Assembly (NCBI GenBank): GCA_964400675.1
Contig: CAYNVO010000001.1
Span: forward strand, 139,919 to 203,918
Direction: 5' to 3'
DNA: 64,000 bases
Origin: an uncultured Dehalococcoidales bacterium
GTDB taxonomy: Bacteria > Chloroflexota > Dehalococcoidia > GIF9 > UBA5629
Each line of letters opens with the position of its first letter. Within the stretch, counting starts at the first letter, position 1. Of this stretch, positions 1 to 14,897 are shown piece by piece. Made by a program: the position numbers and the translations under genes. Under the pieces are notes generated by a model. That model searched no databases and was not told the origin of the DNA. It saw nothing but the letters and a program-made list of their open reading frames with translations.

Positions 1-1838
1 TATACAGTCTTTGCGGTGCACAGTAATCCCCTGACTCCGGGTAATATAACCGATAATAGGGTCGCCAGGCAAGGGATTGCAACAGCGGCCTAATTGAGTA
101 AGCAAGTCACCAACGCCGAGAACCTGAATTCCTGCCGCAGTAGTCCTATCGCTGCGTACGGTTTTGGTTATAGAAGGGATTTCTTCCGGTTCGATGGCCA
201 ATTTGAGCGCCAACTGATGTGTGGTAATGCCGCCATAGCCAATAGCTGCCAGAAAATCATCAGAGCTTTCATAATTGAACAGGCGTGCCGTTTCCTCGAT
301 ATTGGTTATGGCAATGTCAAGCCGCTTGAGTTCTCTGTCCAGAATCTGTTTACCGCGTTCTATGTTCTGTGTTCGTTCCTGTTTCTTAAACCACTGGCGA
401 ATTTTTTCTCGGGCGTGGGAAGTCTTGACAAATCCCAGGTCGGGGTTGAGCCAGTCAAGGCTGGGACCCTTGCCGACCTTAGCGGTCATAATATCTATGA
501 TTTCGCTATTCTTGAGTTCGTAGTTCAGGGGCACGAGCCTGCCGTTTACCTTGGTGCCTATGCAGCGATGTCCTAACTCGGTATGGATGCGATATGCGAA
601 ATCCAGTGGAGTGGCGCCTTTGGGCAGAGCTTTTATTTCACCTTTGGGGGTATAAACAAAGACCTGGTCAATGAAGACATCAGTTTTTAACGATTCGAGG
701 AATTCCTCGCTGCCAAGCTCGCTTTGCCACTCAATTAGCTGACGTAGCCAGGCTATCTTGTTTTCGAAGTGTGTATCCTGTTTGGCACCCTCCTTATAAC
801 GCCAGTGGGCAGCCACACCGAAATCGGCAGTTCGGTGCATGCTATAGGTGCGGATTTGTATTTCCAGTGGAGTTGTTCCCTGGCATAGCACTGTGGTGTG
901 CAGTGACTGGTATCCGTTGTCTTTAGGATTGGCGATGAAGTCGTTAAACTCCTCGGGAATAGGATGCCACAGGTTGTGGATAGTACCCAGCGCTTTATAG
1001 CAGTCCGGGATTGTGTCTACCAGTACCCGGAAAGCGAAAAGGTCATGAATGTCGTCGAAGTCTCTGCCTTGAGTCGCATATCGGTTCATTTTATTACAGA
1101 TGCTGTAGATATGCTTTGGTCTGCCTATGATTTCTGCCTTTATATCGGCTTTGTCCAGTTCTTGTTTTAATATCTGTGTAATTTCATTAATAAAAGCCTC
1201 TCGTTGCGTTCTGCGGGTGGCCAGCAAGCGAGCCACTTTATGATATTGGCGTGGCTCAAGGTAGCGGAAAGATAAATCCTCCAGTTGCCACTTTATCTGC
1301 CAGATACCCAGGCGGTGGGCAAGAGGCGCATATATATCCAGTGTCTCTTGGGAAATGCTGCGCCGTTTCTCCGGTGACAGAGGTGCTAAAGTTTGCATGT
1401 TATGCAGCCTGTCGGCCAGTTTGATAAAAACTACCCTCAAGTCCTCTGCTGTAGCTATCAGCATCTTTCGCAGGTTCTGGGCTTGAGATTCTCGTTTCCT
1501 GGCTTCACCACGGCGCAAGGATAATTTGCCCAATTTGGTGGCGCCATCAACAAGCTTGCTTACCTCCGGACCGAATTTAGCCTCGATTTCGGACAGGGGC
1601 ACGTGGCAGTCTTCGGGCACATCATGGAGCAAGGCTGCGGCTAAAGTGGCGGCATCAAGCTGAAGGTTGGCTAGAGTGGTAGCTGTCTGTAACGGATGGT
1701 CTAGATACGGGTCGCCGGACTTCCGCACCTGTCCTTCATGAGCTTTTAGGGCAAATTCATATGCTGCCTCAACCAAAGCCACTTTGGCAGGAGGCAGGTA
1801 TTCGTTGGCTTTTTCCAGGAGGGCGACAGCATCCATCT
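1..1838 (-). CDS. relA: bifunctional (p)ppGpp synthetase/hydrolase, RelA/SpoT family; 3' (C-terminal) end runs off the window
   Basis: Reverse-strand translation from the ATG at 1838 gives MDAVALLEKANEYLPPAKVALVEAAYEFALKAHEGQVRKSGDPYLDHP...LLHDVPEDCHVPLSEIEAKFGPEV (HD hydrolase motif), then ...RVLVDTIPDCYKALGTIHNLWHPIPEEFNDFIANPKDNGYQSLHTTV (RelA/SpoT synthetase motif). Not in the ORF track because there is no stop inside the window. Confidence 0.85.
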
Positions 1839-2065
1839 CAATCCCACTCCGCCAGTATAATAATGCAAACGAAGCGGCATATGCAAATTCAGACTTACTC
1901 GAAAATTTTTGTCTTAATCTGAACAGCCAGAGTCTTACCCTGATTATAGTTACTCATAATCTGAAGCTGGCTAAAATAGCTCAAAGGTAATACAATTGAG
2001 AGATGGCGAAATGGCTCGCAAATATTCGAGCCATAATTCACCAGGAAAAGCAGGGAGTTAAGTTA

Positions 2066-2995
2066 ATGGCTAAAATGGCTAAAGATATTACAGAGCTTAT
2101 CGGAAATACTCCTCTGGTCAGGTTGAACAGGATAACAGCAGGCGCCAAAGCCGAAGTCGTAGCCAAGCTGGAGTTCTTCAACCCTTGCAGCAGCATTAAG
2201 GACCGCATTGCAGTGTCTATGATTAAAGCCGCTGAAGACCAGGGGTTAATAAACAAAGATACGGTGATTGTCGAGCCTACCAGCGGCAACACCGGTATCG
2301 CCCTGGCTTTTGTCTGTGCATCGCGCGGTTATCGCTTGATACTAACCATGCCGGAGACGATGTCAGTGGAGCGAAGGCATATTCTGTCTTTCCTGGGTGC
2401 CGAGCTGGTGCTAACGCCCGGTGGTGAGGGCATGTCCGGTGCAGTACGGAGGGCTGAACAACTGGTAGCCGGGAACAAGAATTACTTTATGCCACAGCAG
2501 TTCAAGAACCCGGCGAATCCTGAAATTCACCGCCAGACCACTGCTGAGGAAATCTGGAAGGACACAGATGGTAAGATAGACATTCTGGTAGCCGGTATTG
2601 GAACAGGCGGCACCATCACCGGTGTAGCTGAGGTGATTAAGAAGAGAAAACCTGGATTTAGGGCTGTTGCCGTCGAGCCGTCTGATTCGCCGGTTCTTTC
2701 CGGCGGCAAAGCTGGCCCGCATAAAATTCAGGGCATAGGCGCCGGTTTTATTCCCGATGTACTGAAGCTGGAGCTGGTCGACGAAATCATCAAGGTAACC
2801 AGCGATGATGCCGGTGCCACAGCCAGGAGGTTAGCCAAAGAGGAGGGGATACTGGCCGGCATATCTTCCGGTGCCGCAGCCTGGGCGGCTCTTGAGGTTG
2901 CCAAGAGAAACGAGAACAAGGGTAGGCTCATCGTGGTGATTTTACCCGATACCGCAGAGCGTTATATATCCACCTGGCTTTTTCAGGAGCTTTGA
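2066..2995 (+). CDS. cysK: cysteine synthase A (O-acetylserine sulfhydrylase)
   Basis: Translation [20 protein letters not shown]...SSIKDRIA...[11 protein letters not shown] is the PLP-dependent CysK/CysM signature. The internal ATG at 2066 is the likely start of the 2003..2995 ORF. Confidence 0.9.
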
Positions 2996-3165
2996 TTTTC
3001 CTGTGCCAGGCATTCGACCAACTGAGCCAATAGGACTATAATATAGCGAATACCCGCATTGCGGACAGAGTTAGCTATAATTTCAAACGGAGGCAAGAGT
3101 AAAAATCGTCACATTTCTCTATTTGCTATACTCGCAGCTCACCGAATTCAACGGAGGATAAGGGT

Positions 3166-3600
3166 ATGGGTAAAATTATTGCCGTCTGCAAAAGCGATGA
3201 AAGAGGAACCAAGAAGGAAGACGTAAAAGAAGGTATTCTGGAGGAAGACTTCGGCCTCGTCGGCGATGCCCATGCTGATTCCTGCACGCATCGGCAGGTG
3301 AGCCTGCTGGCCGTGGAGAGCATCGATAAGATGCGGGCGCTGGGACTGGAGTTAAAGCCGGGCGATTTCGCCGAGAATCTGACTACTGAGGGAATAGAGT
3401 TGATGTCTCTGCCTGTGGGCACGAGGATGTCAGTCGGCGAGCAGGTCGTACTGGAGGTCACTCAAATCGGCAAGGAGTGCCATGCCGGGTGCGCTATCTT
3501 CCAGCAGGTGGGCAAGTGCGTCATGCCTGAAGAGGGCGTGTTTACCAGGGTGATAAAAGGCGGCACTGTCAAATCTGGAGACCACATAAAGGTGGGGTGA
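3166..3600 (+). CDS. MOSC-domain protein (molybdenum cofactor sulfurase C-terminal domain, YiiM-like)
   Basis: 144 aa; the GDFAENLTTEGIEL...CHAGCAIFQQVG pattern is typical of the MOSC beta-barrel. RBS ggaggataagggtATG. Confidence 0.65.
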   Translation: MGKIIAVCKSDERGTKKEDVKEGILEEDFGLVGDAHADSCTHRQVSLLAVESIDKMRALGLELKPGDFAENLTTEGIELMSLPVGTRMSVGEQVVLEVTQIGKECHAGCAIFQQVGKCVMPEEGVFTRVIKGGTVKSGDHIKVG

Positions 3601-3601
3601 G

Positions 3602-4393
3602 ATGGCGGGCGAGGTAGAGAGGGTTCCCATATCGCGGCTTACCGAGGAGGGGAAGAGCCGCACCGATGATGTCGTTGTCAGGGAATTCCTCCTTACAATC
3701 GTATTTAATAACCAGGAGCTGGTAACTTTGCTGTGTTCTCCGGCAAATCTCGATTATCTGGCGGTCGGTTTCCTTTCCTCCGAGGGGCTACTGAAAAGCA
3801 AAGATGACATCAAAAAGATAACGGTTGACGAGCGGCGAGGCGTTGTCCGCGTAGAAACAGAAACGGAGAAAAAAGGGGCTGGCGAGCTGGTGTTTAAGCG
3901 GCTGATTACATCGGGCTGTGGCAGAGGCACTTCTCTTTACAGCGCCGCTGACGTCGGCGGAGGGATAAAAGTAGAATCTCAAACCAGAATATCGGCTATT
4001 GAGGTCTTCGAGCTGGTAGCCGAGTTTCAGCACCGGTCGCAGATTTTCAGGGCTACAGGCGGTGTCCACAGCGCGGCGTTATGCGATACCGGGGGCATAC
4101 TGATTTTCAGAGAAGACATAGGCAGGCATAACGCCATCGACAAGATTTTTGGAGAATGTATCTTGAAAGATATATCTACTGCTGACCGCATACTGGTTAC
4201 CAGCGGCAGAGTTTCATCGGAGATATTGTTTAAAGCGGCTAAAAAGAATATTCCCCTGCTTATCTCAAAATCAGCGCCCACCGACCTAGGTGTGAAGCTA
4301 GCCAGCGATTTGGGCGTCACACTTATCGGTTTTGTCAGGGGAAAGAGGATGAATGTTTACGCAAATGATTGGAGGTTAGCTGACCATGGATAG
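3602..4393 (+). CDS. fdhD: formate dehydrogenase accessory sulfurtransferase FdhD
   Basis: 263 aa; contains IFRATGGVHSAALCD and IGRHNAIDKIFGE, conserved FdhD motifs. Abuts the MOSC gene with a 1-nt gap. Confidence 0.8.
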   Translation: MAGEVERVPISRLTEEGKSRTDDVVVREFLLTIVFNNQELVTLLCSPANLDYLAVGFLSSEGLLKSKDDIKKITVDERRGVVRVETETEKKGAGELVFKRLITSGCGRGTSLYSAADVGGGIKVESQTRISAIEVFELVAEFQHRSQIFRATGGVHSAALCDTGGILIFREDIGRHNAIDKIFGECILKDISTADRILVTSGRVSSEILFKAAKKNIPLLISKSAPTDLGVKLASDLGVTLIGFVRGKRMNVYANDWRLADHG

Positions 4394-5306
4394 AGAGCCA
4401 GAGCTGGCTGAGAAAATCTTGAGGTTAAAGAAAAAGAGAAATGCCGTCATACTCGTCCACAATTATCAACTGGGCGAGGTGCAGGATATAGCCGACTTTG
4501 TTGGCGATTCGCTTGACCTCAGCCAGAGAGCCGCCAAGACCGGTGCCGACGTCATAGTTTTCTGCGGCGTCCATTTCATGGCGGAGACGGCGTCGATTCT
4601 GTGTCCAGATAAGACGGTCTTGCTGCCGGACCTGCACTCTGGCTGCCCCATGGCGGATATGATAACTGCCCCACAGCTTCGCGCCAAGAAGAAAGAGCAT
4701 CCACAGGCTACGGTGGTCTGCTATATCAACTCCTCTGCGGCGGTTAAGGCTGAATCCGATGTTTGCTGCACCTCTGCCAACGCGGTTGGTGTTATTGAGA
4801 GCCTGGATGCGGATGAGATACTTTTCGTCCCTGACCAGTACCTGGGGCATTATGTTTCCACCAGGACGGACAAAAAGATGGTTCTCTGGCCCGGCTTTTG
4901 TCCCACCCACGCCCGGATACTGCCTGAGCATATCATCCAGCTAAGGCAGGAATATCCCGAGGCTAAGGTGGTAGTTCACCCGGAATGCAAGCCCGGGGTG
5001 ATAGCCCTGGCTGACGAGGTATTGAGCACCAGCGGCATGATAAAGTTTGCCGGCAGGGAAGATGTTCAGCAGGTGATAGTGGGCACGGAGGTAGGCATAA
5101 TCTACAGGCTCAGAAAAGAGAATCCGGACAAGAAGTTCATACCTGTATCAGAGCAGGCTATATGCCCCAACATGAAGCTAATCACACTGGAGAAAGTCCT
5201 GTGGTCTCTTGAGGAGATGGCGCCTGAGGTCAAGGTTCCGGAGAAAATACGCCTCAAGGCAAAAAAGGCTGTGGACAGGATGCTGGCAGTGGGCAGGAGC
5301 GCATGA
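4386..5306 (+). CDS. nadA: quinolinate synthase A
   Basis: 306 aa; VILVHNYQLGEVQDIADFVGDSLDLS...VIVFCGVHFMAETASIL and three-domain repeats typical of NadA. Confidence 0.9.
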   Translation: MDREPELAEKILRLKKKRNAVILVHNYQLGEVQDIADFVGDSLDLSQRAAKTGADVIVFCGVHFMAETASILCPDKTVLLPDLHSGCPMADMITAPQLRAKKKEHPQATVVCYINSSAAVKAESDVCCTSANAVGVIESLDADEILFVPDQYLGHYVSTRTDKKMVLWPGFCPTHARILPEHIIQLRQEYPEAKVVVHPECKPGVIALADEVLSTSGMIKFAGREDVQQVIVGTEVGIIYRLRKENPDKKFIPVSEQAICPNMKLITLEKVLWSLEEMAPEVKVPEKIRLKAKKAVDRMLAVGRSA

Positions 5307-5632
5307 AAGATACCGGCAAGGTCGTCATCTTCGTTACCGCCAACTCTGAGGAAGAAGCCCGCAAGATAGCCGACCAATTGCTCACCAGTAGAAAAGCCGC
5401 CTGCGTAAACATCGTGCCAAAGGTAAACTCCTCTTTCTGGTGGCAGGGCAAGCTGGACTCGGCACAGGAAAGCCTGCTCATCATCAAGACCAGAGCCTCG
5501 CTGCTTCAAGAGGTCATTGACCTGGTCAAAGCAGCTCACAGCTACTCAGCCCCCGAGATAATCGCCCTGCCCATCATCGGCGGCAATGAGGATTACCTCA
5601 AGTGGATTGATGACGAGGTTAGGGAAGGCTGA
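5303..5632 (+). CDS. cutA: divalent-cation tolerance protein CutA
   Basis: 109 aa; VVIFVTANSEEEARKIADQLLTSRKAACVNI...WWQGKL matches the CutA1 family. Start overlaps the nadA stop. Confidence 0.85.
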   Translation: MKDTGKVVIFVTANSEEEARKIADQLLTSRKAACVNIVPKVNSSFWWQGKLDSAQESLLIIKTRASLLQEVIDLVKAAHSYSAPEIIALPIIGGNEDYLKWIDDEVREG

Positions 5633-5759
5633 ACAAAACGTCAAAAAGTGCATCTGGTGAGAATCTTGTAGAAGGGACTGGAGTTTAGTAAACTTACCCC
5701 AACTTTATAGTGATTCATGATTGGTTTCACGATTATCTAATGTTTGGAGGTGGGAGACA

Positions 5760-6209
5760 ATGATAGACCAGAAAAAGCAAGTCGCAAAAGAGGCCAAGCG
5801 TGAAGAGAAGCGCATTGCGGAAAAAGCTGCGCGACTAGCCAGAGAGCAGGCAAGAAGAAAAACTGATCTGGCCAGAGAGCAAGCGATTCAAAAAGAGCAA
5901 GCAGCAAGAGGGGCCAAGCGTGAAGAGAAGCGCATTGCGGAAGAACCTGCGCGACTAGCCAGAGAGCAGGCAAGAAGAAAAACTGATCTGGCCAGAGAGC
6001 AAGCGATTCAAAAAGAGCAAGCAGCAAGAGGGGCCAAGCGTGAAGAGAAGCGCATTGCGGAAGAACCTGCGCGACTAGCCAGAGAGCAGGCAAGAAGAAA
6101 AACTGGTCTGGCTAGAGAACAGGCAATAGCCGAAGATCAGGAGGCGAGAAGGCGAGAAATCGAAAAAGCGAAAATCAACCACCAGAATAAGCTAAAGAGG
6201 TATGGGTAG
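5760..6209 (+). CDS. hypothetical highly charged coiled-coil protein built from perfect 40-aa tandem repeats (KREEKRIAE.ARLAREQARRKTDLAREQAIQKEQAARGA)
   Basis: ORF 5721..6209; RBS ggaggtggga precedes the ATG at 5760. The DNA contains 2.6 copies of a 120-bp unit, each encoding 40 aa in frame. Confidence 0.5.
   Translation: MIDQKKQVAKEAKREEKRIAEKAARLAREQARRKTDLAREQAIQKEQAARGAKREEKRIAEEPARLAREQARRKTDLAREQAIQKEQAARGAKREEKRIAEEPARLAREQARRKTGLAREQAIAEDQEARRREIEKAKINHQNKLKRYG
5792..6110. repeat. tandem direct repeat, 120-bp unit x about 2.6 (copies 1 and 2 differ at about 3 positions; copy 3 diverges in its last third)
   Basis: The unit starting ggccaagcgtgaagagaagcgcattgcgg recurs at 5792, 5912 and 6032. 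Confidence 0.9.
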
Positions 6210-6227
6210 TAGGCAAGCCTGTGCATC

Positions 6228-6372
6228 GTTTGCAATTGCGCCTCATTTAGTATACACTAGAAGAGGTGGTTTTTAGTTTACGTTACTTCTTACTTGCCTA
6301 GATCCTCTTAGATTTTTCCAAGTTTCGGGTGACCATAACTCTAACCAACTATTTTAAAAGAGGAGGTCATCC
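6228..6372 (+). promoter_or_regulatory. putative promoter (TTGCAA-N15/17-TATACA/TACACT) plus a conserved long 5' leader of zinc-ribbon gene copy 1
   Basis: The segment aligns with 7588..7734 upstream of paralog 2: shared ttagtRtaYaStagaagWggtggtt...ggtgacc..aactc.aaccaacta...aagaggaggtcatccaATG. Confidence 0.4.
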
Positions 6373-6564
6373 ATGAGTTTCGAAGATAAATCGATTCAGT
6401 GTTCCGATTGTGGTACTACCTTTAGCTTCACTTCCGGGGAACAGGAATTCTTTGCATCTAAAGGTTTTACCAACGAACCTAAGCGTTGTGTTCAGTGCCG
6501 AAGAGCTAAGAAACAACAGAATAGTGGTTCAACCAACTATGCGTTCAGCGACAGTAGAAGATAA
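6373..6564 (+). CDS. small CxxC...CxxC zinc-ribbon protein (paralog 1 of 3)
   Basis: 63 aa; SIQCSDCGTTFSFTSGEQEFFASKGFTNEPKRCVQCRRAKK. Strong RBS aagaggaggtcatccATG. Paralogs at 7735 and 22549. Confidence 0.65.
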   Translation: MSFEDKSIQCSDCGTTFSFTSGEQEFFASKGFTNEPKRCVQCRRAKKQQNSGSTNYAFSDSRR

Positions 6565-6589
6565 GTCAAATAATAGTTGACTTGACCTT

Positions 6590-6634
6590 GAGGACATACA
6601 TAGGCCCGAAATTGTGTGGCTTATGTGTGTCCTC
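6590..6634 (+). terminator. conserved hairpin downstream of the zinc-ribbon gene (stem gaggacatacataggcc / ggcttatgtgtgtcctc); terminator or RNA-stability element, no U-tract
   Basis: An imperfect 17-bp inverted repeat sharing the ACATACATAGGCC core with the hairpin at 7955..7990. Confidence 0.4.
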
Positions 6635-6799
6635 ATACAAGCTGTTAACGAGGAGCTTTGATAAAATGATAGATACTCTTAACAGCGACCATGGTAATTT
6701 GGGAAACAGTGTACCTCTGGTAGAACTGCGTACATGTCATTCCGTACTTAGTTGATTACATATACTTTTTCATCTCGTTACACAAAAAGGAGCGGGAAA

Positions 6800-6991
6800 A
6801 TGAAGTTTGATAAAAGTAAGGGTTTTTGCAATGGGCTTTATGTTCACAATGGAGGATGTGAGGTTACCTTTCATTCATTGAAGCATACAAATAGTGAGGT
6901 TACTATAAGAAACTGTAAAAAGTGTACTTGTCCTTTAGCTAGAAGCCATAGGCAACAATATTCTGATGAAAAAAGAGGGATTATTAAATAA
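6800..6991 (+). CDS. hypothetical small Cys-rich protein (63 aa) in an AT-rich segment
   Basis: RBS aaaaaggagcgggaaaATG at 6800. MKFDKSKGFCNGLYVHNGGCEV...CKKCTCPLA has 6 Cys. Local GC is well below the window average. Could be spurious. Confidence 0.3.
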   Translation: MKFDKSKGFCNGLYVHNGGCEVTFHSLKHTNSEVTIRNCKKCTCPLARSHRQQYSDEKRGIIK

Positions 6992-7381
6992 GGATAAAAT
7001 GACATTTGGATGATTTAATGATGCGAAACAATTCAGTAAGACCTGATATTGACAAAAAGTATCGTGTACATATCATCGTGGAGGTCACTAGTTCTAGATC
7101 CATCCTTAACAACCAGCCAATTTGTGTATAAGAATGGAAGAGCTTAAATATACATTTTTTACCATACTAAATATTTCTATTACGAGAGGCCATTTGATCT
7201 TAAGAATTCAATGAGCTCCGAAGATGATATGGCCTCTCCAAGCATAACTTGAGTTAACTCACGAAAATAAAGGAGTATCTCTGCAACAACTTGTGCTTCA
7301 ACCATAGACCCTGTTTTCCCGTTTTGATCTGTGTAATTAAAGGCCACCCCAGACTTAGTATCAGAAAGCACTTTAATCGCT

Positions 7382-7451
7382 GCGGCAATGAGGATTACCT
7401 CAGGTGGATTGATGACGAGGTTAGGGAAGGCTGAACAAAACGTCAAAAAGT
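7382..7451. repeat. 70-bp direct duplication of the cutA 3' end (copy of 5580..5649; 1 mismatch), including the stop codon and 17 nt downstream
   Basis: ggcaatgaggattacctcaRgtggattgatgacgaggttagggaaggctgaacaaaacgtcaaaaagt is present at both sites. Confidence 0.9.
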
Positions 7452-7587
7452 TACTACTTAGGCAACAAAAAGACCCACCGTGCAGGAGTAAGCAATAATT
7501 CATGTCATTAGTGTTAAGCAAGCGAAGGCTCCTTGGATTTGACCATGGCAATCTTTCTTATTGGGAAGCTTGTCCAGGCTTTTGCAA

Positions 7588-7734
7588 AGCGGGGCGTTTT
7601 AGTGTATAGTAGAAGTGGTGGTTCCAGTTTAGGTTATCACGTACTTAGTTAAATTACTTTAGATTTACCCAACTTACCCAAGCTCCGGATGACCCCAACT
7701 CCAACCAACTACTCGTAAGAGAGGAGGTCATCCA
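7588..7734 (+). promoter_or_regulatory. putative promoter (TTGCAA-N17-TATAGT) plus a conserved long 5' leader of zinc-ribbon gene copy 2
   Basis: Aligns with 6228..6372; the same RBS context aagagaggaggtcatccaATG. Confidence 0.4.
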
Positions 7735-7941
7735 ATGAGTTTCACAGATAAATCGATTCTCTGTCCCGATTGCGGGACCACCTTCACCTTCACTGCTGGG
7801 GAACAAGAATTCTTCGCGTCTAAAGGCTTTACCAACGACCCTAAGCGTTGCCCTCAGTGCCGACAGGCTAAGAAACAACAGCGCGGCGATTCACAAGGTG
7901 GCTACAGCCACAGCAGCACCAGACTTAGTAGGGAATACTAG
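7735..7941 (+). CDS. small CxxC...CxxC zinc-ribbon protein (paralog 2 of 3)
   Basis: 68 aa; SILCPDCGTTFTFTAGEQEFFASKGFTNDPKRCPQCRQAKK. About 75% identical to paralog 1 over the N-terminal 45 aa. Confidence 0.65.
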   Translation: MSFTDKSILCPDCGTTFTFTAGEQEFFASKGFTNDPKRCPQCRQAKKQQRGDSQGGYSHSSTRLSREY

Positions 7942-7954
7942 TTTGGCTTTAAGC

Positions 7955-7990
7955 ACATACATAGGCCGGGGGTACGTGGCCTATGTATGT
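7955..7990 (+). terminator. perfect 13-bp stem hairpin (acatacataggcc / ggcctatgtatgt) between the zinc-ribbon gene and the RRM gene
   Basis: Inverted repeat read directly; the same core as the hairpin at 6590..6634. Confidence 0.45.
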
Positions 7991-8023
7991 TACACAGCGT
8001 GCTAATAGAAGGAGGAGCAAAAC

Positions 8024-8317
8024 ATGAATATCCACGTGGGCAACTTATCGGCTGATGTAACTGAAGAGGAACTGCGGGAGGAGTTCAAGGCTTTTGGAGG
8101 AGTCACTTCCGTAAACATCATAAAAGACAAGTACAGCGGGCAATCCAGGGGATTTGGCTTTGTTGAAATGCCATCTAAGCCTGAAGCCGAAGCTGCAATT
8201 GCCGGCCTCAAAGGAAAAACGCTGAAGGATAGGACGCTCGATGTTAATGAGGCTCGCCCTCGCTCCGACAGCAGAGGCGGAGGGTTTAGCGGAGGAGGCA
8301 GACAGAGAAGATACTAA
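8024..8317 (+). CDS. RRM-type RNA-binding protein with a Gly/Arg-rich tail
   Basis: 97 aa; MNIHVGNLSADVTEEELREEFKAFGGVTSVNIIKDKYSGQSRGFGFVEM carries RNP2 (IHVGNL) and RNP1 (RGFGFVEM). C-terminal RGGGFSGGGRQRR. RBS aggaggagcaaaacATG. Confidence 0.85.
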   Translation: MNIHVGNLSADVTEEELREEFKAFGGVTSVNIIKDKYSGQSRGFGFVEMPSKPEAEAAIAGLKGKTLKDRTLDVNEARPRSDSRGGGFSGGGRQRRY

Positions 8318-8687
8318 ATCGCGTCCTCATCTACAGGCTTAAGACATATAGTATTGATACTTAGCATACAACTGACCGAACAAGCGGGGGTTAGTACATT
8401 GTCGATGGTAATAGAATGATAATCGCGCCAGGATAGAGCGCTTTTATTCTCTTTTAATTATGAAAGACAACGGTGGTCTAAACTCTGAAGACATCCTAAG
8501 CATGAGGTCTGAGGTTGAGTCACTTACACTTCCCAAGACAGCTTGAGACACTTTTCACGACGAGGAGACAGAAGAAGATATTACCGAATCTGACTCTTCT
8601 TGGGAAGCTGAAGAATCTGCTGACCTTGAAGATGAGTGGAGAGATAAGGATGAGTGGAGAGATAAGACAGAAAGAGGAGCTAAGTCT

Positions 8688-10007
8688 GTGCCTGGGCCTA
8701 AAGTAGAGCCTTGGGAACAGCCGGTTGATGACCCGATTGTCATGTATCTCCACGAGATCGGCAAAGTCTCGCTTCTCACCGTAAACGATGAGAAGGTATT
8801 AGCCGGCAAATTAGAAGAAGCCAAGTATCTGGCAAAGATTGAAGGTCTTAGTCCTGAGCAACATGGCAGATATTCCCAAGCGGTTAGCACGACAATCTAT
8901 CTGCTTCGTCACTTACTTGCAGCCCGGCCCATGGTTGATATTCTTGTCAAGCGCTTTGAAATTGCCACGACAGATAGCCTCATCCAGACAATTCGCAATC
9001 CCAAACTGCGGGCGGCTATCAACGGTGTAATCGACCCGGAACTGGTGAAAGCTATTACCGAAGCCAATGGCAAAAGTATCTCAGAGGTTGGGCTAAGCTT
9101 GATATACCTTTCGATAGATAACCGGCTTTTGCCTTCGGAACTACTGGAGAGCATGGTAGACGGAACCTCCTGGAGCCAGATGGAGTCTTGGGTGGCCGAG
9201 CCCGTTAATCTTGAATTCCTTTCCCAGCTTCGTGCTAAGAGCCAGCAGCTTAAAGCCCACTTCAGTGAGGTTAAAAGAACGGCAAGTGAGGCAAAGAAAC
9301 AGCTTATTGAAGCAAATTTGCGCCTGGTTGTGAGTGTCGCCAAGAAATATACCAGACACGGAATACCATTTCTGGACCTTATTCAGGAAGGAAACATTGG
9401 CTTATTCCGGGCTGTGGACAAATTCCAATACAGGAAAGGTTATAAATTCAGCACTTACGCTCATTGGTGGATTAGACAAAGTATTACCCGCTCTATAGCT
9501 GATCAATCCCGTACTATTCGTATCCCAGTGCACATGGTAGAAATTATCAATAAGTTATATAAGACCATTCGTAGCCTGGTTCAAGAGTATGGGCGTGAAC
9601 CAAGCTGCGAGGAAATTGGCAGAGCCATGGACATCCCTTCAGAAAAAGTAAGGGAGGTCTTGAAATTATCTAGAATGCCGTTGTCTTTAGAGGCTCCTGT
9701 TGGCGAAGAGGGAGACAGCGAGCTCGGTGATTTTGTTGAAGATCGAACTACCCTGCCGCCAGCCGAGGCTGCCTCACGAGAATTACTTAAGGCGCAACTA
9801 ATCAAGGTACTTTCTGAACTCAGTGACCGGGAGAGAAGGGTTTTATTGCTCAGGTTTGGTTTAGAGGATGATAGACCCCGAACTTTAGAGGAGGTGGGGA
9901 AGGAGTTCAATCTGACCCGGGAGCGAATCCGCCAGATCGAGGCCAAGGCATTGCGCAAGTTGCGCCATCCCAGCCGCAGCCGGAAACTCAAAGACTACCT
10001 GGAGTAA
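8688..10007 (+). CDS. rpoD: RNA polymerase primary sigma factor (sigma-70 / RpoD family)
   Basis: Region 1.2 [17 protein letters not shown], region 2 ...[34 protein letters not shown], and a region 4 HTH. The ORF starts with GTG at 8688 (see the finding on the upstream in-frame acidic segment). Confidence 0.9.
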
Positions 10008-10225
10008 GCTCACAGGGCACTGCGGGCACAAGGAAAAATCAGAAGAAGTCACTAGGGCTATTCTGGATCTGTTGAGCATCTAAAAGCGCCATGTGAGAGT
10101 AAACATTTAGCCAGAGTGTTTAAAGCAGCGTCCGCATACACTCTAATCTAAGAGAGGACTTGACAAGCCGCATTGCAGCGAAATAAAACTGCCTCCACGA
10201 AAATCTCTTTATAACGATGATCTTC

Positions 10226-12100
10226 TTAGCCCCCCATTTCAGGCACACAGTTGTTCTTAAGCTCCTCTTCTAAATAGTTTGCCTCTTTGTAAACTCGTTC
10301 TACATCGTCTAACCTGAATCGTTCTTGGGGTATCTGTTCATAAATACTTTTCACACTGTCAGCCAGTTCCTTCGCTTCACCAATTAGCCCCTTTGTCATC
10401 TTTCTGTTGCATCCTCTGCGGGCAAGTATAGCCAATCCCAAATTACATTGAGCAATGCGAACTTTGCTTTGGGCAATCATCCTCGGATCGCGCAAGCGCT
10501 CTCTAATTCCCATCGCCTCGTGGTAGGTCTTAAGGGCGCTGCTAAATTCCTCTTCCGCTTTAACAAAGTTCTCTAAGCTCATGAGTTCCTCGGCTAGGAA
10601 TTGGTGCACAAACGCCATGTTGTGCAAAGTCTGACCATAATGAGCCGGTTCACTAGTTTGTCTGAATTGCTCAGCATATTTCCCCAGTTCCTTGATCAAC
10701 CAGCTTCTCCAGCCTGGAGGAGCGAAATCATCTACGTGGCTGCCCATAATATTTTTTGTAGCTCTTGTTGCGTTCATGAATTCCTGAAAAAGAGTGTAAG
10801 CCAGCTCTGGATCGTCGATCAAGGTTCGGAGTCTTGCTGATTCACCAAGAACTACTTTAGCCTTTACATGGTCACCAGCATTTTGCAATATAATACCGTA
10901 TTCATGGAGTGCCCAACCAAGAAGCTTTTGCAACCTCTTTCGAAGGTCCCTGTCTCTTGTCTGTGCTAATGTAGTTTCAATATCGTCTACTACTTTATAG
11001 GACTCTTGCGGTGAGCCCGTTGCAATTGTGCGCCTTATATAGGCCAAGCGTGCCTGGACCTCTAAGTTCATAATTACGTCAGAAGACTCACTCAAAAAAC
11101 GTTCGTAAGCATCCTTGGCTGGCTCGTGCCTGATGTCGCCCTCATAAACTTGGTAGATACGCAGATAGTCAAGAATACGAGCCCAGAGTAGCCTCACCTC
11201 CTTCTTGGATTGGTGCCATAAATCAATCCCCCAGCTTTTCAATTTCGCCTCCCACCAGTCTTTTGGATTACTTGGGCATTGTGTTTGCCAAATATCAAGT
11301 TCTGGATCTGATTCACCTTTGTTAACCTTCTGGTAAACTTTCTGGAAAAACTCATCAACGTCAACTTTGATGGACATATAATGTTTGTCATCTAGTCGTT
11401 TTTTGACATCCCGATCAATGTCACTTCGTACAAGCCATATAACGTTTCGAGGATTTGCTTCCTCGAATAGGACTGGGATAATATCAAACTCATCTGCACC
11501 ACGGTATCCTGCAACTACCACGATTCGGTTTTTCAACATGTCCACGGCTTTCTGCCTCAAATTAGCTTCCAGCGGGGCAAAGATTTGATTAATGGTAAAA
11601 CGTGCGTGTGTGATGTCAATTAAGGTTCCATGCAGCTTTAAGAGCAAGTCTCTATATGGCTCTTTTGAAGATATTCCAAGATTACTACGGTACTTCCAGC
11701 CAGCTGCTTCCTCGATGAGTTCATCATAATTCGTCGTTAGAACAACGTTCCTAAACTCCTTCATCACCCATGCGAGGAATTTATGGGTGGTGCTATAGGA
11801 ATTAGTAGCCATACAAATTTTGATTGCCTTCGTCGCGTTATCGAGCCCTATAACCTGCACCATCTGATAAAGAATAACCTCATTAAAGAGTAAACCCATA
11901 TGAGGCTTTACGTATTGCACCTCATCTTCGCCTTCTTCTCCGGCTATCGCCTCGAGAAGCGACAAAACGAGGTCTGACCATAATGGAACCCAAGATTGCC
12001 GTTCGGCACTAATTCCCGCTCCCACTAGAAACGCTACTTGGCCATCTTGCACTGCCTTGGTCACTTCTGAGACAATTGACTGTTCGTTTTTCACAGACAC
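10226..12100 (-). CDS. SIR2-like (SIR2_2/DSR-type) NADase-domain protein with a roughly 390-aa uncharacterised alpha-helical C-terminal domain
   Basis: 624 aa. The N-terminal 230 aa carry VAFLVGAGISAE...VVLTTNYDELIEEA...LLKLHGTL...RIVVVAGYRGADEFDI, i.e. the GAGxS, N-D and K-x-HG catalytic pattern of defence-associated SIR2 domains (ThsA/DSR-like). The C-terminal domain is Trp-rich and helical with no motif I recognise. Confidence 0.75.
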   Translation of the reverse strand: MSVKNEQSIVSEVTKAVQDGQVAFLVGAGISAERQSWVPLWSDLVLSLLEAIAGEEGEDEVQYVKPHMGLLFNEVILYQMVQVIGLDNATKAIKICMATNSYSTTHKFLAWVMKEFRNVVLTTNYDELIEEAAGWKYRSNLGISSKEPYRDLLLKLHGTLIDITHARFTINQIFAPLEANLRQKAVDMLKNRIVVVAGYRGADEFDIIPVLFEEANPRNVIWLVRSDIDRDVKKRLDDKHYMSIKVDVDEFFQKVYQKVNKGESDPELDIWQTQCPSNPKDWWEAKLKSWGIDLWHQSKKEVRLLWARILDYLRIYQVYEGDIRHEPAKDAYERFLSESSDVIMNLEVQARLAYIRRTIATGSPQESYKVVDDIETTLAQTRDRDLRKRLQKLLGWALHEYGIILQNAGDHVKAKVVLGESARLRTLIDDPELAYTLFQEFMNATRATKNIMGSHVDDFAPPGWRSWLIKELGKYAEQFRQTSEPAHYGQTLHNMAFVHQFLAEELMSLENFVKAEEEFSSALKTYHEAMGIRERLRDPRMIAQSKVRIAQCNLGLAILARRGCNRKMTKGLIGEAKELADSVKSIYEQIPQERFRLDDVERVYKEANYLEEELKNNCVPEMGG

Positions 12101-12226
12101 AATTCTACTGCTGAGACTAGGCTGAACACAACATCGGAAAGTGTACCCGACACCTGATCAAGTTCTGACTCAGGCTTCTTTGGGCGGTATTAGCGGTGGA
12201 GAGGGTAAAAAAGAAGGTTCGCTAAG

Positions 12227-12367
12227 CTAACTCTTGCCGATGCGGAACATCTTGGTGCCGCAGACCGGGCAGACACCCTGGGTTGCGGGTTTACCACTCT
12301 TCATCTTTACGCTTTTGGCGTCCTTCATTTCTCTCTTGGTGCGGCACTTCATACAGTAGGCTTGCAT
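12227..12367 (-). CDS. small CxxC...CxxC zinc-ribbon protein (46 aa), co-oriented 127 bp upstream of the SIR2 gene
   Basis: Reverse translation MQAYCMKCRTKREMKDAKSVKMKSGKPATQGVCPVCGTKMFRIGKS. Strong RBS GGGGAGGAACGAA before the ATG at 12367. Too short for the ORF track. Confidence 0.55.
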   Translation of the reverse strand: MQAYCMKCRTKREMKDAKSVKMKSGKPATQGVCPVCGTKMFRIGKS

Positions 12368-12483
12368 TTCGTTCCTCCCCTTCTGTCGATTTAGCGGGCA
12401 GAATACCAGAGAATGGCTGAAACGTCAACGACCACTTTATGCTCTCGGTTGTGGAGATTAAGTTTCTTCGATGTACCACACTG

Positions 12484-12507
12484 GGGTCACCCCGGGGAGT
12501 TTTTTAT
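12484..12507 (+). terminator. GC hairpin ggggtcaccccgggg followed by tttttta; intrinsic-terminator-like, plus-strand orientation
   Basis: Palindrome and T-tract read directly. There is no annotated plus-strand gene upstream, so it may terminate an unannotated transcript. Confidence 0.35.
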
Positions 12508-13003
12508 GTTTATTAGCGCCAGGATGCTTGTACAATGCCTGCAGAGGTACGTTCATAGATAGAATTTATAGTTTTTATAGTATAGATAGATTGTATTTAT
12601 CTTGGAGACCAGCAAGCGTTTCAGATCTCCAGTATCATAGGATAAAGCCCGCTCGATGACTTCGGTGGACAAAAGACACCGCTCTGGTTTTTATGGCGGC
12701 AGGTAGTGCAGAAAGATTAGGCAGTCCACAGGCAAAGCACGGGCAGTTAATTCGCCCTGAGAGGGGTGACCCCCTTCGGGAGAGCTATATAGGACATCTC
12801 TAAAAAGCTGCCTGCCAAGCTAGAGATGGCAGGAAACCGCCTAGCTAACTGACTAGTATCTGGCAGATCCACGCCATAAACTGCCTAGCTAAAAGGCAGC
12901 TAGTTGGCAGCTAACTGCCAAAAATTGCCTAAATCTGGCAGCTGACCTGCCACCAACAGGCAGGAATGACCCCTTGCAATTTTCCCTTACTATACAGAGG
13001 GAA

Positions 13004-13255
13004 GTTCGGAGTTCGTAGCTGGAGGTTCGTAGCTGGCCACCGAACTCACAACTCGCCAGCTACGAACTAGCTACGAACTTTAAGGAAATTAGTAACTTTT
13101 TGTATTTGGGTTTCTTACGCTGGCCACCGAACTTCCGGCTCATCAGCTACGAACTAGCTACGAACTTTAGGTGAAATTAAACACTTTTTGTATTTGGGTT
13201 TCTTAGTGGGACACCGAACTCCTGGACCACCAGCTACGAACTAGCTACGAACTAT
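13004..13255. repeat. complex repeat block: an inverted copy (agttcgtagctgg x2) at 13004-13036, then about 2.5 tandem copies of an 87-89-bp unit, each carrying cagctacgaactagctacgaact and ctttttgtatttgggtttctta
   Basis: Units start at 13033, 13120 and 13208. The 11-bp core AGCTACGAACT is itself doubled within each unit. Confidence 0.85.
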
Positions 13256-13625
13256 GAAAGCAACAAGGCAGTGGAGAGGAAAGGGTAACTCATTGCTGCG
13301 CTCCTTGCACTAGCGGTGCTTTGTTGCTAAAATCCAAGACTGGAGGGCTAAGTGGCAAGGCGGAAAGCCAGGGCAAAAGTTCTTCTTTCCGTCCAGTAAG
13401 CCCCACCGTGCTAGATTCGAACCATAGCGGTGACCAGCTTAACCACGACGCGGATTGCACAAGCCATCGTTTTGTGCAGGAGATAGAAGCTACTGAGCTG
13501 ATAGCGTGCCTGAGGCTTCACGCCACTCATCCTCTAATATTCTTTTGTTGCTCTTGCCCTAGATAGTCAATTACACTATATTAGCTATTTCATAAAGGGA
13601 TTTTTGCCGGGAAGGAGTTATTGAT

Positions 13626-14285
13626 ATGGATGTAATCGAAGCCATAAGCAAGCGTAAGAGCATAAGGGGATATAAGCCTGAGCCAGTTCCGATGGAAATA
13701 CTGAAAAAAGTCCTGGAGACTGCTGCGCATTCGCCGTCGGCGATGAACACACAGCCGTGGGAGGTCACTGTCGTCAGCGGCGAAACGCTTGATAAGGTGA
13801 GAAGCGCCAATATCGAGATGCTGAAGTCTGGAGCGGAAATCTGGCGCAGTTTTTCTTTTCAGGGCGCTTACAGGCAACGCCAGGTGGACCTGGCGGTTCA
13901 AATCTTTAAGCTCATGGGGATAGCCAGAGAGGACAGGGAGAAAAGAACACAATGGCTGGAAAGAGGCTTCCGCTTTTTCGATGCCCCGGCAGCTATAATT
14001 TTGTCGGTAGATAGCTCGGCACCGGAATCGCTGGCGTTGCTTGATATAGGGGCATTTTGCCAGAGCATCTGCCTGGCTGCACCGGAGTATGGCCTCGGCA
14101 CCTGCATTGAAGACCAGGGGACGGCGTTCCCGGAGGTGCTTAGAAGGTTCATGGGTATACCTGAGTCAAAGCAGATAGTGATAAGCATCGCCATCGGCTA
14201 TCCGGACTGGGATTTCCCGGCGAACAAGCTGGAGACCGACCGTGAGCATATCGATAGTTTCACAACCTGGTGCGGCTTCGATTGA
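13626..14285 (+). CDS. nitroreductase-family protein (FMN-dependent)
   Basis: 219 aa; KRKSIRGYKPEPVPMEILKKVLETAAHSPSAMNTQPWEVTVV is the nitroreductase fold signature. Confidence 0.85.
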   Translation: MDVIEAISKRKSIRGYKPEPVPMEILKKVLETAAHSPSAMNTQPWEVTVVSGETLDKVRSANIEMLKSGAEIWRSFSFQGAYRQRQVDLAVQIFKLMGIAREDREKRTQWLERGFRFFDAPAAIILSVDSSAPESLALLDIGAFCQSICLAAPEYGLGTCIEDQGTAFPEVLRRFMGIPESKQIVISIAIGYPDWDFPANKLETDREHIDSFTTWCGFD

Positions 14286-14318
14286 TAGGTGAAAATGTCG
14301 AGGTCTCAACATAACATC

Positions 14319-14897
14319 TTAGGGCGATGCCTCTTCGGCATAGACTATCTGGTTCTTATTAACAGCTACGAAGACAGCCGATTGTCGAATACCCGATTCT
14401 AGGACGATATCCACGTTTGTCATGGGTAGGAACGTGTCCTTTGTGTTTAGCAGGTCTGACAATCGCTGCCCTTTAGCACGGTGCATCTGTCCACTTAGCG
14501 TATAAGGTGGTATGTAGAACCTGGCGATGAGAAGGAATTTCTCTCTCGTTAGAGGTAGCTCATAACCTGTCTCTGCATCGGGCTCTTCCTGTGGCTCACT
14601 CTCACTTACGAAGAGGATGTTCGACTTGTTAATTAAGGTAAACTGAGTTGTCGTTTCCGTGCCATCCAGGGCGTGTCTGGTAGCTTCGGTGACAGGCAAA
14701 AAGTCGGCACCAAGGCGAAATGACCTCATCACTATGCTGTTGAGCAGGTCCAAAAGGCGTTGCCCCTGCAAGCAATGAGTATATCCGCTGAGCATGCAAG
14801 TGGGAGTGTACACACATACCTGCAATTGTTCCTTGGAAATGTGTCTCTCCGGACTACCGAATAGTAGCCCTGAATCCGATTCAGGTGATGTTGCCAT
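14319..14897 (-). CDS. hypothetical protein with an internally duplicated roughly 90-aa domain
   Basis: 192 aa; the two halves share Y.P....LSG..H...GQRL.DLLN...FLP.T. Confidence 0.45.
   Translation of the reverse strand: MATSPESDSGLLFGSPERHISKEQLQVCVYTPTCMLSGYTHCLQGQRLLDLLNSIVMRSFRLGADFLPVTEATRHALDGTETTTQFTLINKSNILFVSESEPQEEPDAETGYELPLTREKFLLIARFYIPPYTLSGQMHRAKGQRLSDLLNTKDTFLPMTNVDIVLESGIRQSAVFVAVNKNQIVYAEEASP

Follow-up and report, generated by a model that had tools for sequence, protein, structure and literature searches.

What occupies the 1258 nucleotides (nt) that separate a DUF5679 zinc-ribbon gene (12227-12367, minus strand) from a nitroreductase gene (13626-14285) in an uncultured Dehalococcoidales bacterium? 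The interval lies in a 64,000-nt stretch of contig CAYNVO010000001.1 (assembly GCA_964400675.1), here called the window; contigs compared with the window carry L-numbers. An earlier reading of the letters alone (the sequence-only reading) had noted a gene-free region of nested repeats next to a SIR2-like gene, and had offered as explanations an iteron-like protein-binding array, a structured non-coding RNA or an integration scar. We find that the interval is non-random, and that it is neither a known RNA nor a gene. Our tentative interpretation from comparing related loci, whose chances we place somewhat below even, is that it represents an orphan array of cis-acting protein-binding sites, derived from the leader or attachment region of serine-integrase islands.

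The left edge of the unassigned DNA is set by a promoter-like site of the DUF5679 gene (12400-12428, minus strand; TTGACG-17-TATTCT), which is conserved in contig L109, and the right edge by a promoter-like site of the nitroreductase gene (13554-13582, plus strand). Once these edge promoters are subtracted, ~1.07 kb (12440-13510) is left over. The absence of any credible open reading frame (ORF), claimed earlier, was borne out: the longest ORF in 12440-13600 encodes 81 amino acids (aa), the eight longest are without a Pfam match even at E<=1, and breakpoints in the homology to L109 fall inside the two longest ORFs of the interval. A cmscan search of 11500-14500 at E<=1 placed no Rfam family in the interval, its sole match being a chance 5.8S hit inside the nitroreductase gene. 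ARAGORN called no tRNA or tmRNA in the interval, and the only tRNAs of the window are tRNA-Arg and tRNA-His at 37 kb. BLAST of 12440-13510 against phages and plasmids gave no match, and a full-text search of the literature for the palindromes and the 11-mer described below returned just chance primer or site matches. Three modules make up the interval, and in each an GGGGTNACCCC palindrome leads into an array of short words. On sequence pattern it can be divided into a palindrome at 12483 with ATAGATAG words, a palindrome at 12763 with CTGCC/GGCAG words, and a half palindrome near 12970 with a block of 11-mers.

The 11-mer block begins with head 2 (12967-13003, plus strand), which is the half palindrome GGAA-TGACCCC and then TTGCAATTTTCCCTTACTATACAGAGGGAAG, and which forms the left boundary of the module common to other loci. 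It continues with AGTTCGG and an inverted doublet of the 11-mer, AGTTCGTAGCTGG and then GGTTCGTAGCTGG (13004-13036, minus strand; doublet at 13010-13036). Three plus-strand units follow (13037-13253), each composed of CACCGAACT, 12 nt and the doubled 11-mer AGCTACGAACTAGCTACGAACT, with doublets at 13058, 13145 and 13232; conserved tails, CTTTTTGTATTTGGGTTTCTTA, lie between the units at 13096 and 13184. Tandem Repeats Finder reported a period of 87 with 2.3 copies and 86% matches at 13056-13253, confirming the tandem 87-nt units with their doubled 11-mer; the inverted doublet that faces them is real as well. With at most one mismatch, the 11-mer AGCTACGAACT is matched ten times in the window, where 0.6 matches would be expected, and eight of the ten lie in the block; the 22-nt tail has two copies against 0 expected. 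The block (12967-13260) folds better than shuffled sequences (z = -4.7). The long cruciform proposed earlier was nevertheless overstated, for pairing is limited to the inverted doublet and the first direct doublet, which lie ~18 nt apart and form one hairpin of ~25-26 bp with a 3-nt bulge, leaving units 2 and 3 without a pairing partner.

We scanned metagenomes for the exact 22-mer and obtained 27 contigs. Eleven of these (class A), from at least eight distinct Dehalococcoidia contexts, align to 12967-13259 at 80-88% identity. The block is thus found in at least eight contexts in related genomes and is single-copy within the 64-kb window. Its edges are sharp in class A and the genes differ on either side. 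By these alignments, the 11-mer block is a discrete travelling module. The left neighbour is a DUF5679 gene in the window, L109 and L098, a UPF0158 gene in L094 and L097/L102, an exonuclease-like gene in L092, a gene that is DnaJ-like in its N-terminal sequence in L099, and a sigma-70 gene ~570 nt off in L112. Units per locus range from 1 to 3; L109 is one unit short of the window, with its 11-mers unaltered. Across 21 units from nine loci, the 22-mer is 99% identical, a value partly inflated by the loci having been found through an exact 22-mer match. The search left 12 of the 21 doublets and all copies of CCGAACT unconstrained, and this motif, upstream of the 22-mer, is invariant in 20 of 21 units. 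The tails are ~60% identical, and tails and the sequence in between are 50-80% identical.

In three loci (L098; L102, from the same genome as L097; and L092, the same sequence as L106), an operon with a large serine recombinase as its last gene begins 0.2-0.7 kb downstream of the block; no such gene adjoins it in the window. The operon encodes a small first protein, usually a second small protein, and the recombinase last. In all three loci the block is followed by a tail like the inter-unit tails, a ATAGAATAG-type word cluster, the small gene or genes, and the recombinase, and by eye the promoter reads TTGACA-17-TATAAT in L098 and L102 and TTGACA-17-TATACT in L107. The recombinases, of 544 aa and 574 aa, contain Resolvase, Recombinase and Zn_ribbon_recom domains and match phrog_95 'integrase'. 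The two have no BLASTP match to each other, and the first genes of their operons belong to different families. Because large serine recombinase genes are expected only a few times per genome, three independent adjacencies to the block are beyond chance. For the L092 recombinase, the contigs indexed with a 100% match are all 3.3 kb or shorter, and none of the contigs examined reaches the far end of an island. Scans of viral contigs with the 22-mer and with both recombinases gave either no matches or relatives of 24-33% identity only. Sensitive BLAST of 12368-12960 against the sequence that follows the block at recombinase loci produced no alignment, only shared words.

Arrays of similar design precede related recombinases. 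Relatives of the 544-aa protein, at 61-64% identity, have the same three-gene operon and non-coding leaders of 0.5-1.4 kb. The L130 leader holds three GGGGTNACCC palindromes, arrays coming after each (two GGTGGCTATCTACT, four CAGCTAGGGC and four GGTGGTAAAC), and in L128 about nine ATATGCG/CGCATAT words surround one GGGGTNACCC-type palindrome. In L123 and L125, modules made of a palindrome, GGGAGAG and a word array lie between internal genes. One is at 13754-13936 of L123, where GGGGGGTGACCCCCTGCGGGAGAGG and three copies of GCGTATTTACTGG separate two minus-strand genes, and another at 8545-8665 of L125, where GGGTGACCCC and AGCGCT-type words do the same. Insertion sequences are found directly upstream of the recombinase operons of L125 (3076-4155, rve-type) and L127 (241-2814, ISL3 and IstB), in the position that the repeat leader takes at other loci, and the leaders appear to be frequent sites of insertion or rearrangement.

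The remaining two modules of the interval were analyzed mainly against L109, which is ~83% identical to the window over the aligned interval. Both palindromes of the sequence-only reading are present, at positions that we correct from 12487 to 12483 and from 12762 to 12763, and they are the only matches to GGGGT[CG]ACCCC in 64 kb, where ~0.03 would be expected. Palindrome 1, GGGGTCACCCC (12483-12493), delimits module 0 and is followed by GGGGAG and six T residues (12483-12505 in all). It had been flagged as terminator-like on the plus strand, and the T-run is indeed there; however, L109 keeps the palindrome and GGGGAG and not the T-run, so that a plus-strand terminator role is doubtful and the earlier suggestion is weakened. 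An equivalent palindrome lies 277 nt ahead of the block in L092. The palindrome is a recurring module delimiter. Palindrome 2, GGGGTGACCCC (12763-12773), was found by pattern search; together with head 1 it forms GGGGTGACCCCCTTCGGGAGAGCTATATAGG (12763-12797), which has a 25-nt match inside the recombinase element L123.

Module 0 (12552-12599, plus strand) is an AT-rich cluster of ATAGATAG/TATAGT words, with 25% GC over 12540-12600 and a promoter-like match at 12552-12581. It is identical to L109 at 48 of 48 positions while its flanks have diverged. Counterparts follow the first palindrome in both L092 and L094, and module-0-like words stand ahead of the recombinase-operon promoters in L098, L102, L107 and L125. 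A cassette of ~185 nt, comprising a palindrome and ATAGATAG words, is present in L094 and missing from the 91%-identical L102. Such alignments show the gain and loss of modules between loci. A moderately conserved filler (12600-12762, plus strand; ~75-80% identity to L109) comes next, with two hairpins seen by eye, TGGAGA..TCTCCA near 12605-12633 and CGGTG..CACCG near 12662-12680; the latter is followed by a T-run, and L109 keeps this hairpin only with a register shift.

Module 1 (12800-12962) contains CTGCC/GGCAG words in both orientations, many of them joined to AGCTA. We counted ~11 in 170 nt against 0.6 expected, which confirms the short-word stretch reported earlier for 12800-12960. At least five of these words read CTGCA/TGCAG in L109, both partners having changed, though not in the last inverted pair. 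Of the 40 base pairs predicted, the window and L109 differ in 5, always by compensatory changes, and every pair is kept. In both sequences module 1 splits a palindrome at its centre, giving GGAA-TGACCCC where other loci have GGGG-TGACCCC. The heads themselves have the form AAATACCCTCACTATATAGAGGA (for example 1862-1890 in L102 and 12985-13003 in the window). They share ACCCTCACTA with the phage T3 RNA-polymerase promoter and TCACTATA with that of T7, a likeness that was set aside as no single-subunit RNA polymerase gene was seen; the letters concerned differ from locus to locus. A promoter scan gave three promoter-like matches in all, none in a head.

We infer sequence-specific recognition, and a place in the non-coding control or attachment DNA of serine-integrase islands, from five properties of the words: they are invariant while their spacers drift, they occur in both orientations, they differ from element to element, they switch in concert, and they are placed before recombinase operons whose first products resemble small DNA-binding proteins. 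Among the explanations offered by the sequence-only reading, the iteron-like protein-binding array is the one that comparison supports best, on the strength of the invariant words, the drifting spacers and the concerted word switch. The short words would be binding sites for sequence-specific DNA-binding proteins, and their copies, spread over 100-300 bp and partly arranged as doublets, would assemble a higher-order protein-DNA complex. Such a complex could control the adjoining recombinase operon, recombination at the island end, or both, by analogy with combined operator/centromere arrays (omega, ParR, ParG) or with the accessory sites of resolvases and integrases. At the window locus, the operon would have been lost and the arrays kept. 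Because the operon is gone and the arrays are nevertheless conserved between two species, an island at another site in the genome perhaps still uses them in trans; the window copy would then be a cis-mobilisable end beside swappable defence cargo.

Several results weigh against this interpretation. No protein that binds the words was identified, and there is no replication gene nearby; the binder may be host-encoded. The first genes of the recombinase operons are ribbon-helix-helix-like by eye alone and have no Pfam, NCBIfam or informative PHROG match. Since these first genes, and the recombinases too, are unrelated between loci, the operon proteins are excluded as the specific partner of the block, and tblastn found no homologue of the recombinase or the operon in the 64-kb window. 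The gaps between inverted CTGCC words vary (4, 7 and 9 nt by eye), fitting hairpins better than a rigid dimer site, and the search by exact match has raised the 22-mer identity. No leader of this kind precedes the recombinases of L135, L136, L137-L139 or L123; as the more distant recombinase relatives (L135, L136, L137-L139) have no arrays, the design is clade-limited. Finally, the region is 100% identical and in the same arrangement in 22 of 22 contigs of the species, from many samples, and being fixed in this way the locus is not visibly mobile now. Identical-protein look-ups with the nitroreductase and DUF5679 proteins also returned this species alone, again with the same arrangement.

The genomic position of the interval was then considered. 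Relatives carrying the nitroreductase at 85-88% identity (L113, L115 and L116) share the backbone up to the end of cutA1 (5643) and have wholly different genes between cutA1 and the point where the backbone restarts. Since the backbone is shared on either side and the contents differ, the 7.9 kb in between (5644-13509) form a variable segment, which has the repeat region at its right edge and also holds the sigma-70, SIR2-like and DUF5679 genes. To the left of the region is a cargo slot, occupied by the SIR2-like gene in the window, a restriction-modification-like cluster in L109 and other genes in L094 and L098, and empty in L112. The L109 cluster (432-7690) comprises a cytosine methyltransferase, a helicase and a Vsr-type nicking endonuclease, and the slot in L098 (334-2080) holds a PADLOC candidate gene (PDC-M41B/M30B). 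Judged by its contents, the slot beside DUF5679 behaves as a hot spot for defence genes. The suggestion of a scar from the integration event that delivered the SIR2 gene was upheld in part: the variable segment, the swappable slot and the integrase link at other loci agree with it, but we found no flanking direct repeats or integrase around the SIR2-like gene itself. Histidyl-tRNA synthetase (HisRS) assigns the window to Dehalococcoidia; a synteny search based on it, with one genome per species, gave a best identity of 68% and no neighbours in common.

Other features of the variable segment lie further to the left. A direct repeat of 69-70 nt with one mismatch (5580-5649 and 7382-7451) represents the 3' end of cutA1 and its duplicate 1.8 kb downstream; the two copies bracket an insert of ~41-43% GC with a zf_Tbcl zinc-ribbon gene and small ORFs, and L115 and L116 have the first copy only. 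The insert looks like the product of a site-specific event at the cutA1 3' end. Paralogous zf_Tbcl genes at 6374-6565 and 7736-7942 are preceded by similar leaders of ~120 nt (~6230-6370 and 7590-7735) and both are followed by a similar hairpin, acatacataggcc..ggcctatgtatgt. An ORF of 162 aa (5721-6209) contains near-perfect 120-nt tandem repeats with a KREEKRIAE.. motif, and versions of 109 aa (L001) and 149 aa (L002) in the same species indicate that the repeat number varies. A full-length sigma-70 gene (8688-10007; regions 1.2, 2, 3 and 4) is absent from the cutA-nitroreductase interval of the closest relatives, and in L094 and L112, too, the block has a sigma-70 gene linked to it. The primary sigma gene has been relocated, or else it travels with the variable segment.

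To the right of the block, the flank termed R2 (13254-13407, plus strand) is ~96% identical to L109 (6 mismatches and 1 indel in 154 nt, by eye) and recognisable in L099 and L112. Folding of the plus strand scores z = -1.6 and of the minus strand -0.9, and a consensus structure from four sequences, at -5.9 kcal/mol, was unconvincing. The L004 and L005 contigs (Logan assemblies of the same species) begin within R2 at 13378, 248 nt upstream of the nitroreductase gene; this break is probably due to near-identical R2 copies of other genomes, present in the same samples, forking the assembly graph. Homology to L109 ends at 13407 and backbone homology restarts at 13510 (L115/L116) or 13533 (L113), leaving a species-specific junction segment of 102 nt (13408-13509). 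The degenerate tRNA T-arm-like motif noticed earlier, GATTCGAACC, is present in this segment, at 13414-13423 rather than 13410, but ARAGORN calls no tRNA there. Across 12 loci ARAGORN called one tRNA, an intact tRNA-Gln in L112 ~105 nt from the block, to which the window motif has no significant similarity; in L099 an apparent tRNA 3' fragment is seen by eye in a similar place, where ARAGORN calls none. The window motif may be the relic of a tRNA gene. Comparison of the right flanks revealed two classes, 'solo' loci (the window, L109, L099 and L112) with an R2-type flank, and 'occupied' loci (L098, L102, L092, L107 and L094) with a tail and ATAGAATAG.

The remaining 16 of the 27 contigs (class B) carry the same 11-mer, 15 of them in tandem arrays of up to ~80 copies. 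The arrays adjoin CGGGTTAACCCG palindromes, with 8-14 GGGT(N1-2)ACCC palindromes in each of the richest contigs, and the contigs contain (TA)n runs and long ORFs without Pfam matches. Tandem AGCTACGAACT variants with almost no recognisable genes make up L086-L091, L093, L096, L100, L101, L103, L104, L108, L110 and L111, several of which also hold many CGGGTTAACCCG palindromes, (TA)n microsatellites or poly-C tracts. In L095, a bacterial contig with PBP1A, acyl-CoA synthetase and DJ-1/PfpI genes, about six tandem copies of AGCTA(C/T)GAACT (11642-11707) lie just past the DJ-1 gene. An Rfam search of 11 repeat-bearing contigs gave nothing relevant, only sub-threshold matches to microRNA models that are most likely due to (TA)n/(TG)n runs. 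Class B may be an unrelated satellite that has the 11-nt unit by coincidence, or it may represent this design in expanded form.

The two flank classes bear directly on an alternative in which the block is an attB-side target and different serine-integrase islands insert after its last doubled 11-mer. The 87-nt units would then be remnants of earlier insertions, a left tail joined to a right 'CACCGAACT..doublet', afterwards amplified or contracted by slippage between direct repeats of 22-54 nt. The flank class does switch immediately past the last doublet, inter-unit tails do resemble the sequence after the block in occupied loci, units number 1-3 per locus, and the block has two unrelated recombinases as neighbours, with orientation unchanged and distance similar. 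The tRNA-Gln of L112 and the by-eye tRNA fragment of L099 lie near solo blocks, and tRNA genes are typical integration neighbourhoods. However, no island far end was recovered, hence no flanking repeat copy could be shown; it would take a dedicated mechanism to make the repeated reduction of whole islands to exactly 87-88 nt plausible; the similarity of L098 and L102 extends a further ~85 nt to the left of the palindrome; and the contiguous 13-14-nt arrays of L128/L130 are left unexplained, as are modules 0 and 1. Even with the precedent of the Dehalococcoides ssrA islands, whose bounds are 20-bp direct repeats (PMC3146451), we consider such a target unlikely, if the strongest of the alternatives. 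A second alternative is the structured non-coding RNA of the sequence-only reading, with each module a transcription unit that runs from a CTATA(T/C)AG promoter in its head to the next GC palindrome as terminator, and yields an RNA in which one hairpin or word recurs many times and which would serve as a protein sponge, guide or regulator. Inverted words make hairpins whose loops differ in length, by eye, while the stems stay constant; the changed pairs of module 1 are all compensatory, the block folds better than its shuffles, R2 hardly differs between the window and L109, the plus strand has terminator-like hairpins, and a promoter-like match falls within module 0. Against this, the Rfam scan gave no family for the interval at E<=1, no consensus structure for R2 found support, L109 lacks the T-run of the first 'terminator', and the heads make poor sigma-70 promoters, the good promoters of relatives being downstream of the arrays. 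Stems are invariant across loci and so give no covariation signal, and the one concerted change hits all copies alike, which is equally expected of protein sites. The RNA proposal is not supported, and we regard it as rather improbable.

The direct and inverted copies of one word beside a 25%-GC stretch could mark the replication origin or a centromere-like site of an integrated plasmid-like element, with the doubled 11-mers as iterons or centromere repeats and module 0 as its unwinding element. Related recombinase elements do encode replication-type genes (an MCM-like gene by a faint match, and DUF3854) and a ParA-like ATPase. Nevertheless, no rep or par gene occurs in the region or among the annotated neighbours in the window, the region has no DnaA box (up to one mismatch) or parS-like site, the arrays of relatives adjoin the recombinase operon and not replication genes, and the cumulative GC skew rises near-steadily without turning for good at the region, its sole dip, at 10-12 kb, coinciding with the minus-strand SIR2-like gene. 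We hold this to be very improbable. Nor is there much to be said for a modular dispersed intergenic repeat of the BOX, REPIN or miniature inverted-repeat transposable element kind, made of a head, 1-3 internal units and inverted copies at its ends and moved by a transposase encoded elsewhere and without a host function. Discrete boundaries, a variable unit number, inverted copies of the word at both block ends (I1 and I2) and the many contexts in related genomes are all in keeping with such an element. But the 64-kb window has a single copy, we noticed no duplication of a target site, nothing at the right end mirrors the head and left extension, and a strong and repeated link to recombinase operons would be unexpected, making it the least probable of the explanations considered. 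A bolder and quite improbable extension, which we would still place slightly ahead of the origin, treats the GGGGTNACCCC palindromes as crossover sites. Units of a palindrome plus a word array would be non-coding cassettes that Chloroflexota serine-integrase islands gain, lose and reorder in an integron-like manner, each holding sites or repeat RNA for a different factor, and the kilobase AGCTACGAACT arrays of class B with their GGGTTAACCC palindromes would be runaway versions.

If arrays of this kind do serve serine-integrase islands for control or attachment, they would offer a sequence landmark for island ends and defence hot spots in uncultured Dehalococcoidia, where the borders known so far are mainly those of the tmRNA-linked Dehalococcoides islands. 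The usual description of large serine integrases has them need short attachment sites and one directionality factor only. To find a conserved array of many sites next to two unrelated integrases would suggest a further layer of control or a shared host factor, and the word switch between two close relatives constitutes a natural experiment in the co-evolution of a protein and its DNA site.

We compared the interval with known repeat-based systems. Tests against known classes led us to reject the identities of origin, CRISPR, integron and parS/dif: the 65-nt 'spacers' are 70-80% alike among themselves and no cas genes occur among the neighbours, and the integron attC motif GTTRRRY is counted once in the region against 1.7 expected, with no tyrosine integrase nearby. 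Arrays bound by ribbon-helix-helix proteins include the omega heptads of pSM19035, parC of R1 with its 11-bp repeats, and parH of TP228. Like these, the arrays described here have many word copies in both orientations upstream of a small-protein operon, words that differ between elements, and an 11-bp period equal to one helical turn. Unlike them, they lie upstream of the promoter and not over it, their doublets are 87 nt apart with conserved spacers, and one array accompanies differing first genes. The operons of relatives also lack a partition ATPase, their first product has no match to a ribbon-helix-helix family, and the window has no operon of an ATPase and a ribbon-helix-helix protein. 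Iteron origins (pSC101, pPS10, R6K) have direct iterons and an inverted copy for autoregulation. The 22-bp direct-repeat element with an inverted copy of the same word and an AT-rich stretch nearby recalls them, but the repeats are not contiguous, and a rep gene, DnaA boxes and a skew signal are all missing.

Arm-type sites, as in attP of lambda, P2 and L5, belong to tyrosine integrases, and no large serine integrase is known to require them. The block resembles arm-type or res accessory sites in having paired direct sites of 10-11 bp with inverted copies opposite, over 200-300 bp, beside a recombination junction. It differs in that the ~18 nt between its doublets are too short for a core and bending sites, and in having no adjacent tyrosine integrase. 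BOX elements of S. pneumoniae (boxA, n boxB, boxC) and REPINs occur in tens to hundreds of copies per genome. They are likewise modular and intergenic, with variable internal units and ends able to form a hairpin, but the block is present once in 64 kb and is consistently linked to a recombinase operon.

The closest parallel comes from the same bacterial class. The account of the Dehalococcoides ssrA islands (McMurdie et al., 2011; PMC3146451) describes a serine recombinase of ~540 aa, DsiB, near one island end, and a single 20-bp direct repeat that derives from the end of the tmRNA gene and lies within the integrase gene, with the integration genes on the reverse strand by attL. Cargo is variable and tandem accretion occurs, and islands without an integrase were proposed to be cis-mobilisable. 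Similarly, the window region edges a variable segment and the recombinases of its relatives are 544-574 aa. The differences are that there is no tmRNA or tRNA target here, that the recombinase of relatives is last in a forward operon, and that the landmark is a palindrome and word-array set of 0.3-1.2 kb, which the available part of that source does not describe. The palindrome-plus-word architecture was met neither in that part nor in our other searches, and we would class the system as a cis-acting mobile-element repeat array. By analogy with the ssrA islands, the orphan end in the window would fit a cis-acting island end that has been retained without its integrase.

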